Of a stretch of DNA of 13,586 nt, positions 3,001-6,000 are shown one piece after another; within the stretch, counting starts at the first letter, position 1, and each line of letters begins with the position of its first letter. The position numbers were made by a program. This DNA is from a virus (lineage: Duplodnaviria; Heunggongvirae; Uroviricota; Caudoviricetes), in IMG/VR virus record IMGVR_UViG_2897352509_000015. One strand, given 5' to 3'.

Positions 3001-6000
3001 ACATCGTGGTCATTCCAGTACGCCCACGGGCAGATTTGTCCTGCTCGCTCGTAAGCTCCACGTAAAATTACGTTGTCGAAGGTGGCCCCGTTACCCCAGA
3101 CTTTTAAATATTTCGTATTGTCTGCGTGCCGGTTAATGAAATGGTTTAGTTCTGAGAGAGCATCGCTGATCGACAAAGTATCATCAATACTTCCAGCGAT
3201 ACCAGCGCGACTTTAAATGCGGTAAGTACGTTTTTAACCACATCGATTTTGAATACTATTTCATCACATACAAACGATTTATCGTCTACTACCGTTTCAA
3301 TTCCGGTAATCGTGTTTTGTAGCCATTTGGTTAATTCAGCCATTTTTCATTACCGCCCTTTCGGGCGGTCTCCTGATGTTCTGAGGGTGCAGGAATCCCT
3401 CCGGTTAAGGATTAAATTTTATTTACAGAACTGAATTTAATTATTCAGATATACGTATCTGTAACCTTACGAACCTACTCACTGGATGCCTATTTCATAA
3501 AAATAATCCAGTGGGTTTTATCGTTTTTTCCTGTTCGTTGACCGATAACAGGTTTTCTGTCGGTCAGTACCAATATCTGGCGAACAGGTATTTGCGTTTC
3601 ATTCCATTTAAAAATCAGAACGCCGGATGGACGCAACACACGAAAGGCTTCTTTAAATCCCTGCCGCAAATCATCACGCTAGGTATCTTTATTCAGCCGT
3701 CCATATTTCTTTCCCATCCAGGCGTTATCACCAACACGCTCAAGATGCGGAGGGTCGAATATAACCATCGAAAAAGATGCGTCTGCAAATGGTAGTGCAC
3801 GAAAATCAGCTATCAGATCAGGACTGATAATCAGGCGTCGTCCATCACACAATGTGTGCTCTTCCTTTCTGATATCGCTAAATATCGCCCGGTCGTCATT
3901 CTTATCGAACCAGAACATGCGACTGCCACAGCACATGTCGAGGATTGCTGCATGTCCAGTCACTGGCTGCCTCCTTTGCGAAGCCGTTCCGCCCATTCTT
4001 CAAGGGATTTCTCTGCATATTCACCGGACAGGCCATCAATCGGATGCGATTCATTAGCTAACTCTTCTTTTGCTGACAGAATCATGCGTGTAACGTCGAA
4101 AACTTCAGCCAAAGGCTTATTGATAAATCCGTGATTGAAAGCAGCAGCAAGACGGCTTGCGGTACTTTGTTTTCCAGTGCTGCACATTTAGCTTCAAGCG
4201 CATCGAATTTACGTATCAGGTATTCAGCATCCGTTTCATTCACTTTCAGATCTCGCGGTACACATTTCCCGCGAAGAAACCCTTCCATTTCGAAAACATT
4301 CATGCGCATTTGCGTAACTCCGATAACTCGTTGAAGCGCTCAATAAACATCCCGTAGGCATGGCTCGGTGCCAGTGGAATCACGTTGAACATCTCTGTTG
4401 CCGGGATACCTTCCAGTACAGGCCAGAAAGAGCCATCATCAAGCCCGAGATCGCGGCGTTCGGTTGCCAGCATGATGAGATCGGCATATTTCACAGGCGT
4501 GCTCATAACCGTGGGTAACCCGTATTTCTCACGGATTACGGCGTCTATTTTTTCTTCCATCCGTTTATAGTCGGGAAGAAGGCGTTTCAGTGGCGCGGGG
4601 ATGTCCTGGCAATACGCTTCTGTCGCATCATGCATTAACGCTTCAAAAGCAAATTCCTGCGGTACCAGCTGGCTGCAAAGCACCGCATGTTGGGCGACGC
4701 TGTAGAAGTGTGAAAGATGGCCGGCAAAGCGACAGATATTTGAAAGGGAAACCGCGATATCGTTAATATCGATGTTGTCTTTATTTATCCTGTCATAATA
4801 AAAATGCTTCCCGGAAAAAGTTTTAATAAATGACATTTTGTTCTCCACGTTATATGCGCTGCACCGCGCTGAATTCGGGTAAAAGGAAGCCCTCACCGTC
4901 CGGCGATTATTGAGTCAATTACATTTCCATAAATGCCCCCGTAGGGGCGGTTAGTTTCTCCACAAAACAGAGAAGAACTACCAATAAAGGTTTCTACTTT
5001 GCTGTCCTTGAATTTCTCAACAAGCAGATCACGAAATTCGTTAGCCATTTCTTCCTGCACCGCCTCCAGCTGAATAATGCGCAGAACCAGTACCGGACGA
5101 TCGCCAGTGATAATGCTGAGGCGTAATTTAAACGGACGTTCTTTCAGACCTTCAAACGGAATGCATTTAAATTCAAATGCCACTGGCATAATGTCTTTGG
5201 TCTTCGCTTCGACAGACTCCATCAGGGAGCGTTTGCCGCTGAAGTCATTATCTTCAAAATCAGCGGTCTGGTTTGCTTCAATCGTGATTTTACGGACCGC
5301 CGCAGCCGCTTTTGTTGCCTGAATGGTGTCACCATTAGCATCAAAGCCCACAAGGTAGTCGGCCCAGTCTTCAATCCATTCTGGTTGCCGCCAATCGTAT
5401 CGCGTTTATTGACCCGGCAAACGGGAATGAAACGCCGATGTTTGTGGCGCAGGGCAACCAGATATTCATGAACGACGTGTTCCTGAAGCGCCTGACGGCC
5501 CCCACCATTACCAGTGGTGGAAATCCACCGGCATTTTCCCTGACACCGGATGGAAAGCTGACTGCTAAAAATGCGGATATCAGTGGTAACGTGAATGCGA
5601 ACTCCGGGACGCTCAACAACGTCACGATTAACGAGAACTGTCGGGTTCTGGGAAAACTGTCCGCGAACCAGATTGAAGGCGATCTCGTTAAAACAGTGGG
5701 CAAAGCTTTCCCCCGGGACTCCCGTGCACCGGAACGGTGGCCATCAGGGACCATTACCGTCAGGGTTTATGACGATCAGCCGTTTGACCGGCAGATTGTT
5801 ATTCCGGCGGTGGCATTCAGTGGCGCTAAGCATGAGAGAGAGCATACTGATATTTACTCCTCATGCCGTCTGATAGTGCGGAAAAACGGTGCTGAAATTT
5901 ATAACCGTACCGCGCTGGATAATACGCTGATTTACAGTGGCGTTATTGATATGCCTGCCGGTCACGGTCACATGACGCTGGAGTTTTCGGTGTCAGCATG

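Follow-up and report, generated by a model that had tools for sequence, protein, structure and literature searches.

YfdR, an HD-domain 5'-deoxynucleotidase encoded by Escherichia coli prophages, binds DnaA; replication initiation is inhibited when yfdQ–yfdR are over-expressed together with yfdS or yfdT (PMC4776307). YfdS itself bears a portable DUF551 domain that is also found in an Ea22 variant (PMC10834534), and exchange between phages and defective prophages via short, diverged homology has been documented experimentally (PMC3945230). The gene that follows yfdR differs between elements: in K-12 CPS-53 and many other prophages it is yfdS (120 aa), whereas in O157:H7 it is one intact 351-nt gene encoding a 116-aa protein annotated as "Eae-like" (WP_001242740.1). 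Here we analysed a 13,586-nt stretch of viral DNA (IMG/VR record IMGVR_UViG_2897352509_000015; hereafter the window), which aligns from end to end, at 98.7%, with the O157:H7 prophage remnant integrated at dusA, and in which the gene behind yfdR is broken into two overlapping open reading frames, ORF1 and ORF2. To judge from the alignments, these frames are very probably the two halves of a dead hybrid gene, YfdS-type in its 5' half and Eae-like in its 3' half, situated at the edge of an 816-nt recombinant patch.

The broken gene behind yfdR and its relatives

All genes between 3490 and 5381 lie on the minus strand (Table 1). The original prediction of two overlapping frames with a change of frame between them was correct in its coordinates, and a PHROG search placed the halves in different families: ORF1 residues 1–50 match phrog_583 positions 1–50 (E 4e-28) and ORF2 residues 6–75 match phrog_614 positions 144–211 (E 3e-29). 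Because both frames match PHROG families, and different ones, the change of frame exceeds chance. The claim of translational coupling to the HD hydrolase gene (yfdR) also held, as the start of ORF1 and the stop of yfdR share 10 nt, ATGCGCATGA, with GGAG 8 nt 5' of the ORF1 start, and the same overlap is present in the annotated O157 and K-12 homologues. At the other end, the stop of ORF2 and the GTG start of the methyltransferase pseudogene that follows share 4 nt (GTGA). ORF1 runs from MRMNVFEME to …AALENK and then into a hydrophobic tail, VPQAVLLLLSITDLSISLWLKFSTLHA, which is the ORF2 sequence read out of frame. ORF2 begins MCSTGKQSTASRLAAAFNHGF…, lies in the -1 frame relative to ORF1 with an overlap of 106 nt, and is open only from 4187, immediately 3' of a TAA; its ATG at 4187 is a chance start in that frame. 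Plus-strand frames across 3854–4357 gave no family hits, and a promoter and terminator scan returned nothing relevant except an intergenic hairpin at 4934–4949.

It is highly improbable that the two frames are genuine genes or that a programmed -1 ribosomal frameshift links ORF1 to ORF2. ORF2 does lie in the -1 frame with an ATG of its own, and phrog_28257, a 64-aa PHROG family comprising solely the last ~54 residues of the Eae-like C-terminal module (C-module), contains the end of that module by itself. However, the overlap at 4085–4187 holds no X XXY YYZ heptamer, our own reading of the sequence ahead of the ATG at 4187 found no GGAG or AGGA and no strong Shine–Dalgarno motif, the layout occurs in no other sequence of the collections searched, and the ORF1 tail is mere out-of-frame C-module. 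With no heptamer, no strong ribosome-binding site and no conservation, both a programmed frameshift and a split gene were rejected. The comparison with intact homologues from other prophages proposed in the original prediction pointed the same way, in that none has two genuine overlapping genes. Members of phrog_28257, for their part, suggest truncated or split annotations of the Eae-like gene in other phage genomes.

The O157-type gene overlaps yfdR by 10 nt and the methyltransferase gene by 4 nt, just as the broken gene in the window does. Since the more complete O111:H8 version of the prophage carries the same yfdR and 116-aa accessions, this arrangement is ancestral for the element. YfdS and the Eae-like protein share only their first ~36 codons (the N-module), after which YfdS runs into DUF551, and longer relatives of 160–200 aa combine the same N-module with a variable middle and the C-module …AEARNEGINYTASRLAAAFNHGF…. 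On this comparison of sequences the family is visibly modular, a common N-module preceding differing C-terminal parts, and the conserved N-module offers a natural place for cross-overs.

Set against WP_001242740.1 (from O157:H7 and O111:H8), the window has the same locus and the same coupling to yfdR and the methyltransferase gene; its first 36 codons are homologous and there is 100% identity between codon ~50/51 and the stop, but codons 37–49, EVRAEARNEGINY, are swapped for the YfdS-type ALEAKCAALENKV, and the remainder is in the -1 frame and hence without a continuous ORF. Set against the YfdS-type protein WP_042095394.1 from E. coli KCJ3K291 (phrog_583, with a C-terminal DUF551), the window shows no difference in codons 1–49, in the upstream yfdR or in the intergenic region, and it departs from the YfdS-type sequence at codon 49. 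ORF1 retains the YfdS-family N-module, MRMNVFEMEGFLRGKC…KFDALEAKCAALENK, but the C-terminal DUF551 domain, which occupies residues ~50–117 of YfdS from K-12 CPS-53, is wholly missing: neither window ORF gave any Pfam hit, whereas K-12 YfdS matches DUF551 (PF04448) at residues 50–117. Nor is the Eae-like C-module complete. The complete module starts at …(F)LAE(I/V)RAEARNEGINYTASRLAAAFNHGF…, the match to phrog_614 begins at position 133 for the O157 protein and only at position 144 for ORF2, and the (nearly) invariant R106–Y116 of the family alignment is missing. The N- and C-modules do not share one continuous frame, ORF1 stopping at 4082 after 26–27 junk codons. With no DUF551, a C-module short of its first ~11–13 residues and no continuous frame, the window copy is most likely non-functional on sequence grounds, and neither fragment would be expected to function separately.

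The 816-nt patch and its two junctions

A base-by-base comparison with O157 TW14359 revealed 177 differences, confined to 1–1281, 12329–13586 and 4165–4978; apart from the last of these segments, 1282–12328 is 100% O157. Exact TW14359 matches flank the patch (1500–4164 and 4979–12300), with O157 identity extending to 4164 and picking up again at 4979, and between them lies a segment that matches a yfdR/yfdS-type prophage module of E. coli KCJ3K291 exactly and holds 81 differences from O157. The interior belongs to one parent and both flanks to another, and the junctions are sharp. Next to the break, over 4165–4200, 24 of 36 bases differ from the O157 gene. Within the patch lie the 3' tip of a yfdQ remnant, the intergenic hairpin, yfdR from end to end, and codons 1–49 of the gene behind it. 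Its yfdR, which is annotated as such in homologous loci, sits entirely within the foreign segment as the KCJ3K291-type allele, and its exact protein was found in a 15-billion-protein collection. The homologous core (yfdR plus the shared N-module) is roughly 93–95% identical between the parents, and the patch extends past the parental homology on both sides, by 38 nt on the left and 30 nt on the right. The hairpin, a GC-rich GCCCC-TACG-GGGGC between the yfdQ remnant and yfdR, marks the upstream limit of homology between the O157-type and KCJ3K291-type modules.

Table 1. Features of the hybrid locus and of the foreign patch (window coordinates; a slash marks a junction).
Feature	Position	Strand	Description
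Left junction	4163–4164	-	2 nt (TA, gene strand) common to both parents
Right junction	4978–4979	-	Blunt, in register: …ATTGGTA/GTTCTTCTC…
Junction search strings	both junctions		CTGGAAAACAAAGTACCGCAAGCC and CTTTATTGGTAGTTCTTCTCTG
Foreign patch	4163–4978		816 nt, exact match to E. coli KCJ3K291 yfdR/yfdS-type prophage module
5' half of hybrid gene	4165–4309	-	Codons 1–48/49 of YfdS-type gene, MRMNVFEMEGFLRGKCVPRDLKVNETDAEYLIRKFDALEAKCAALENK(V)
3' half of hybrid gene	3960–4162	-	Codons ~51–116 of resident O157-type 116-aa Eae-like gene, …ASRLAAAFNHGFINKPLAEVF…RKGGSQ, stop
ORF1 as now read	4082–4309	-	75 codons: 48–49 genuine, then 26–27 out-of-frame C-module codons
ORF2 as now read	3960–4187	-	75 codons; genuine C-module only from ~residue 9
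yfdR (HD-domain 5'-deoxynucleotidase)	4300–4836	-	Intact, 178 aa; phrog_318 E 3e-109; Pfam YfbR-like/HD_3
Class I SAM-dependent (DNA) methyltransferase pseudogene	3490–3963	-	Coupled (GTGA) to hybrid gene; in-frame TAG 3679–3681

The left junction, which reads …GAA AAC AAA GTA/CC GCA AGC… on the gene strand, accounts for the loss of frame. As far as …AAAGTA, the 5' half does not differ from the yfdS-like gene of KCJ3K291; past this edge KCJ3K291 reads …GTA ATA CCA GTG (YfdS …ENKVIPV) and O157 reads …AAC TAT ACC GCA AGC (…NYTAS), so that YfdS-type codons 1–49 (…ALENKV) are fused to the Eae-like gene from codon ~50 onward (TASRL…). The 3' half is 100% identical to O157 TW14359 and TX 265-1 and lies in the -1 frame relative to the 5' half. 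An in-register, in-frame join would be AAA GTA ACC; the window instead has AAAGTACC, one A short, and a -1 shift results. The left end-point lies 38 nt past the end of the parental homology, at the 2-nt microhomology (38 vs 39 nt, an in-register count that is our own reading of the alignment). The right end-point, which also appears in the alignment as ATTGGTA/GTTCTTC, lies 30 nt past the intergenic homology (30 vs 30 nt) and deletes the stop of the truncated yfdQ (DUF2303) remnant, adding 29 junk codons before that ORF ends at 4893.

The break had been attributed to a one-base shift near gaaaacaaag (4165–4178), restoration of which would yield a ~118-aa protein. That segment adjoins the true break (4163–4165), which falls outside the A-runs, and adding a base does produce a single ORF of ~116 codons. 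However, the product would be a chimera without the ~11–13 residues (…AEARNEGINY) that open the conserved C-module, and a protein search did not find it. We nevertheless considered the possibility that a functional in-frame chimera, …ALENKV-TASRL…, is the true state of the gene, the base having been lost through a sequencing error or through a very recent deletion of 1 nt at the AA of GTAACC. The window is indeed the exact in-register chimera minus a single junction A. Against this, the run concerned is just 2 nt long whereas 16 longer runs stand unaltered in the O157-identical sequence, the chimera would still be without the start of the conserved C-module, and it turned up neither in a search of 5.8 billion protein clusters (top hits of at most 86% identity at full coverage) nor in 5,426 genomes. 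An intact chimera is accordingly very unlikely.

The same arrangement was not found elsewhere. A 121-nt query centred on the left junction gave no site with at least 80% coverage in 5,426 complete E. coli genomes, a collection that does not include the source genome of the window, and the best full-coverage match to a 936-nt query over both junctions was 92.4%. Exact scans for either junction string were empty in the GTDB representatives, IMG/VR and the JGI metagenomes. When the restored chimera was compared with the 5.8 billion protein clusters, only the parental types were returned, with no …ALENK-TASRL… sequence. ORF1, ORF2, the chimeric yfdQ-tail ORF and the DUF2713 and DusA proteins of the window have no exact entry in the gene-position index. 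Draft and metagenome contigs with the PspG allele, which come from related lineages and carry other dusA prophages or none, have the junction in no case, and no homologue in the collections searched has two genuine overlapping genes or a "repaired" gene.

Neighbouring defects and the remainder of the remnant

The original prediction had combined the broken gene with a second nearby homopolymer frameshift and a nonsense codon to suggest either real pseudogenisation or systematic homopolymer error in the assembly. The second frameshift, in the exonuclease region, is actually the joint left at 3190 by a deletion of 1.46 kb, as judged against O111:H8, where the N-part of a hypothetical gene now runs into the C-part of a gene for a 3'-5' exonuclease. 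The nonsense codon is real: a TGG to TAG change at 3680. Over 975 nt, nothing else distinguishes this region from its counterpart in O111:H8, where the methyltransferase gene is intact. Both defects lie in sequence identical to that of O157:H7, where they are annotated as pseudogenes, and because O157:H7 carries the identical sequence neither represents assembly noise. The 9,937 O157-identical nucleotides further include 16 homopolymer runs of 6–8 nt, every one of which keeps the O157 sequence, and only three 1-nt indels relative to O157 were found: at 1020 (a natural allele in other lineages), at 4850 (within the KCJ3K291-type patch) and at the junction. A homopolymer indel, whether as error or as the origin of a pseudogene, was rejected as the cause of the break, which is a switch of parent sequence at the edge of the patch joining two families and not a change in run length; on the sequence comparison, systematic homopolymer error is ruled out. 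Pseudogenisation, the other half of the proposal, stands insofar as the gene is broken, although through the edge of a recombination patch and not a slip in an intact gene.

The remnant runs from attL to attR, unchanged from O157:H7 except for the patch, in another chromosomal background. It retains int (10987–12084) and a PrtN-family gene (2520–2828), which we suspect to be a putative excisionase. Three tandem DUF1076 genes at 8513–10516, which we take to belong to the NleG type III effector family, are identical to those of O157:H7. A joint at ~5370–5382 brings a 5'-truncated yfdQ (DUF2303) remnant up against the tail-tip J gene, itself 5'-truncated and on the opposite strand; with 100% matches in 201 complete genomes, this joint seems to be a marker of the O157-type remnant.

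The flanks of the remnant (1–1281 and 12329–13586) are non-O157, with 24/24 sites on the right and 66/69 on the left agreeing with other E. coli lineages; for the left flank the best match in complete E. coli genomes is 97.7%. At a 60-nt tandem-repeat indel (~76) and a 6-nt indel (~631), the DUF2713 gene (1–957) is as long as in O157, while its single-nucleotide polymorphisms (SNPs) match an L009-like lineage that has both insertions. The 15-billion-protein collection contains no exact copy of its 318-aa protein.

Origin of the patch and comparison with known mosaic joints

The patch, its exact parentage, both junctions, the loss of frame and, within the collections searched, the uniqueness of the junctions were read directly from the sequence comparisons; the events that follow are a reconstruction. 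The resident would have been a decayed O157:H7-type dusA prophage, with an intact 116-aa Eae-like gene behind yfdR and translationally coupled to it. Segment 4163–4978 would then have been replaced by its counterpart from a KCJ3K291-type module, in which yfdR is followed by a YfdS-type gene, in an exchange anchored on the homologous core of yfdR and the shared N-module. Most likely the exchange would have been a gene conversion with a YfdS-type prophage, co-resident or incoming, as donor. Repair synthesis or a template switch would have run past the homologous core before re-annealing near register, the left end settling at the 2-nt microhomology, one base off register, and so leaving the YfdS/Eae-like fusion in the -1 frame. 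Provided that the patch explanation is right, we consider it rather probable that the event occurred in the cell, for example by gene conversion through break repair or template switching. If the allele is real, the geometry of the junctions (0 and -1 nt register, 0–2 nt microhomology) would favour synthesis-dependent strand annealing or an overshooting template switch, or else branch migration through heterology, over random cut-and-paste.

Four observations weigh against an origin in the cell. Both end-points lie in heterologous DNA and yet are nearly in register, as simple homologous recombination does not predict and an alignment-driven computation would. Both parents match at 100% and the junctions were found nowhere else, leaving the natural existence of the allele without independent confirmation. 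A donor copy in the same genome is hypothetical, the source genome lying outside the complete-genome set. Finally, identity to O157 stops at the att sites, beyond which the alleles are those of another lineage. These observations bear on the possibility that the patch is an assembly or polishing chimera, in which O157-type sequence at dusA was overwritten by paralogous yfdR/yfdS reads, or a contig, in an alignment-guided step. Such an artefact would be consistent with a patch that is in register, contains no indels other than 1-nt ones and has similar overhangs at its two ends (38 and 30 nt), with 100% identity to two different parents, with unique junctions, with a left flank of O157 length at the 60-nt and 6-nt indels despite its other-lineage SNPs, and with a source genome absent from the RefSeq complete set that was searched. 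However, De Bruijn mis-joins change over within shared k-mers and not at 0–2 nt of identity, and a mapping step that tolerates 30–38 nt of ~70%-mismatched overhang should also have converted the 5' end of dusA and the attL edge. The diverged, phage-supplied 5' end of dusA (12173–12249, attR) and the attL edge both remain phage/prophage-type. In addition, no further indel or SNP anomalies occur in 9.9 kb, and the flank alleles are natural, the right flank being 100% identical to an independent metagenome contig. Taken together, an artefact of this kind seems unlikely, although it retains appreciably more weight than an intact chimera. A related candidate, a reference-filled consensus, fits the att-bounded O157 identity and the O157-length DUF2713 indels; it was down-weighted, as the 5' end of dusA and the attL edge are unconverted.

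We therefore return to the hybrid gene at the edge of a recombinant patch. The annotation should describe the locus as a hybrid pseudogene lying at a recombination joint, with no base-adding "correction", and the broken gene provides no evidence of a noisy assembly. It is an ordinary scar of prophage decay and recombination; at most, it adds one further exchange between defective prophages, with unusually well-defined parents and junctions. Only the near-register, heterology-penetrating geometry of the junctions is mildly notable, if true. Should the allele be real, its junctions might even represent a fresh, unselected snapshot of the birth of an intragenic phage mosaic joint, a suggestion that we put forward only tentatively and regard as doubtful. 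The YfdS and Eae-like modules are without established biochemical function, and a broken copy adds nothing in this respect. The Eae-like N- and C-modules match no Pfam family; for P0013, a full-length family member, nothing in the PDB matched by sequence at E ≤ 1, and an AlphaFold2 model built from a 43-sequence alignment was unusable (pLDDT 45, pTM 0.31).

The closest parallels are the mosaic joints formed between lambdoid phages and defective prophages, for which relaxed Rad52-like and illegitimate recombination have been weighed against each other (PMC3945230). As in those joints, a module has been inserted on a diverged homologous core, and the patch likewise falls in the early-left accessory region, where exchanges are frequent. 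In contrast to those joints, the end-points in the window do not coincide with gene boundaries or flanking homology; they lie inside heterologous DNA and inside ORFs, which they destroy, and such end-points are tolerated because the element is already a decaying remnant.

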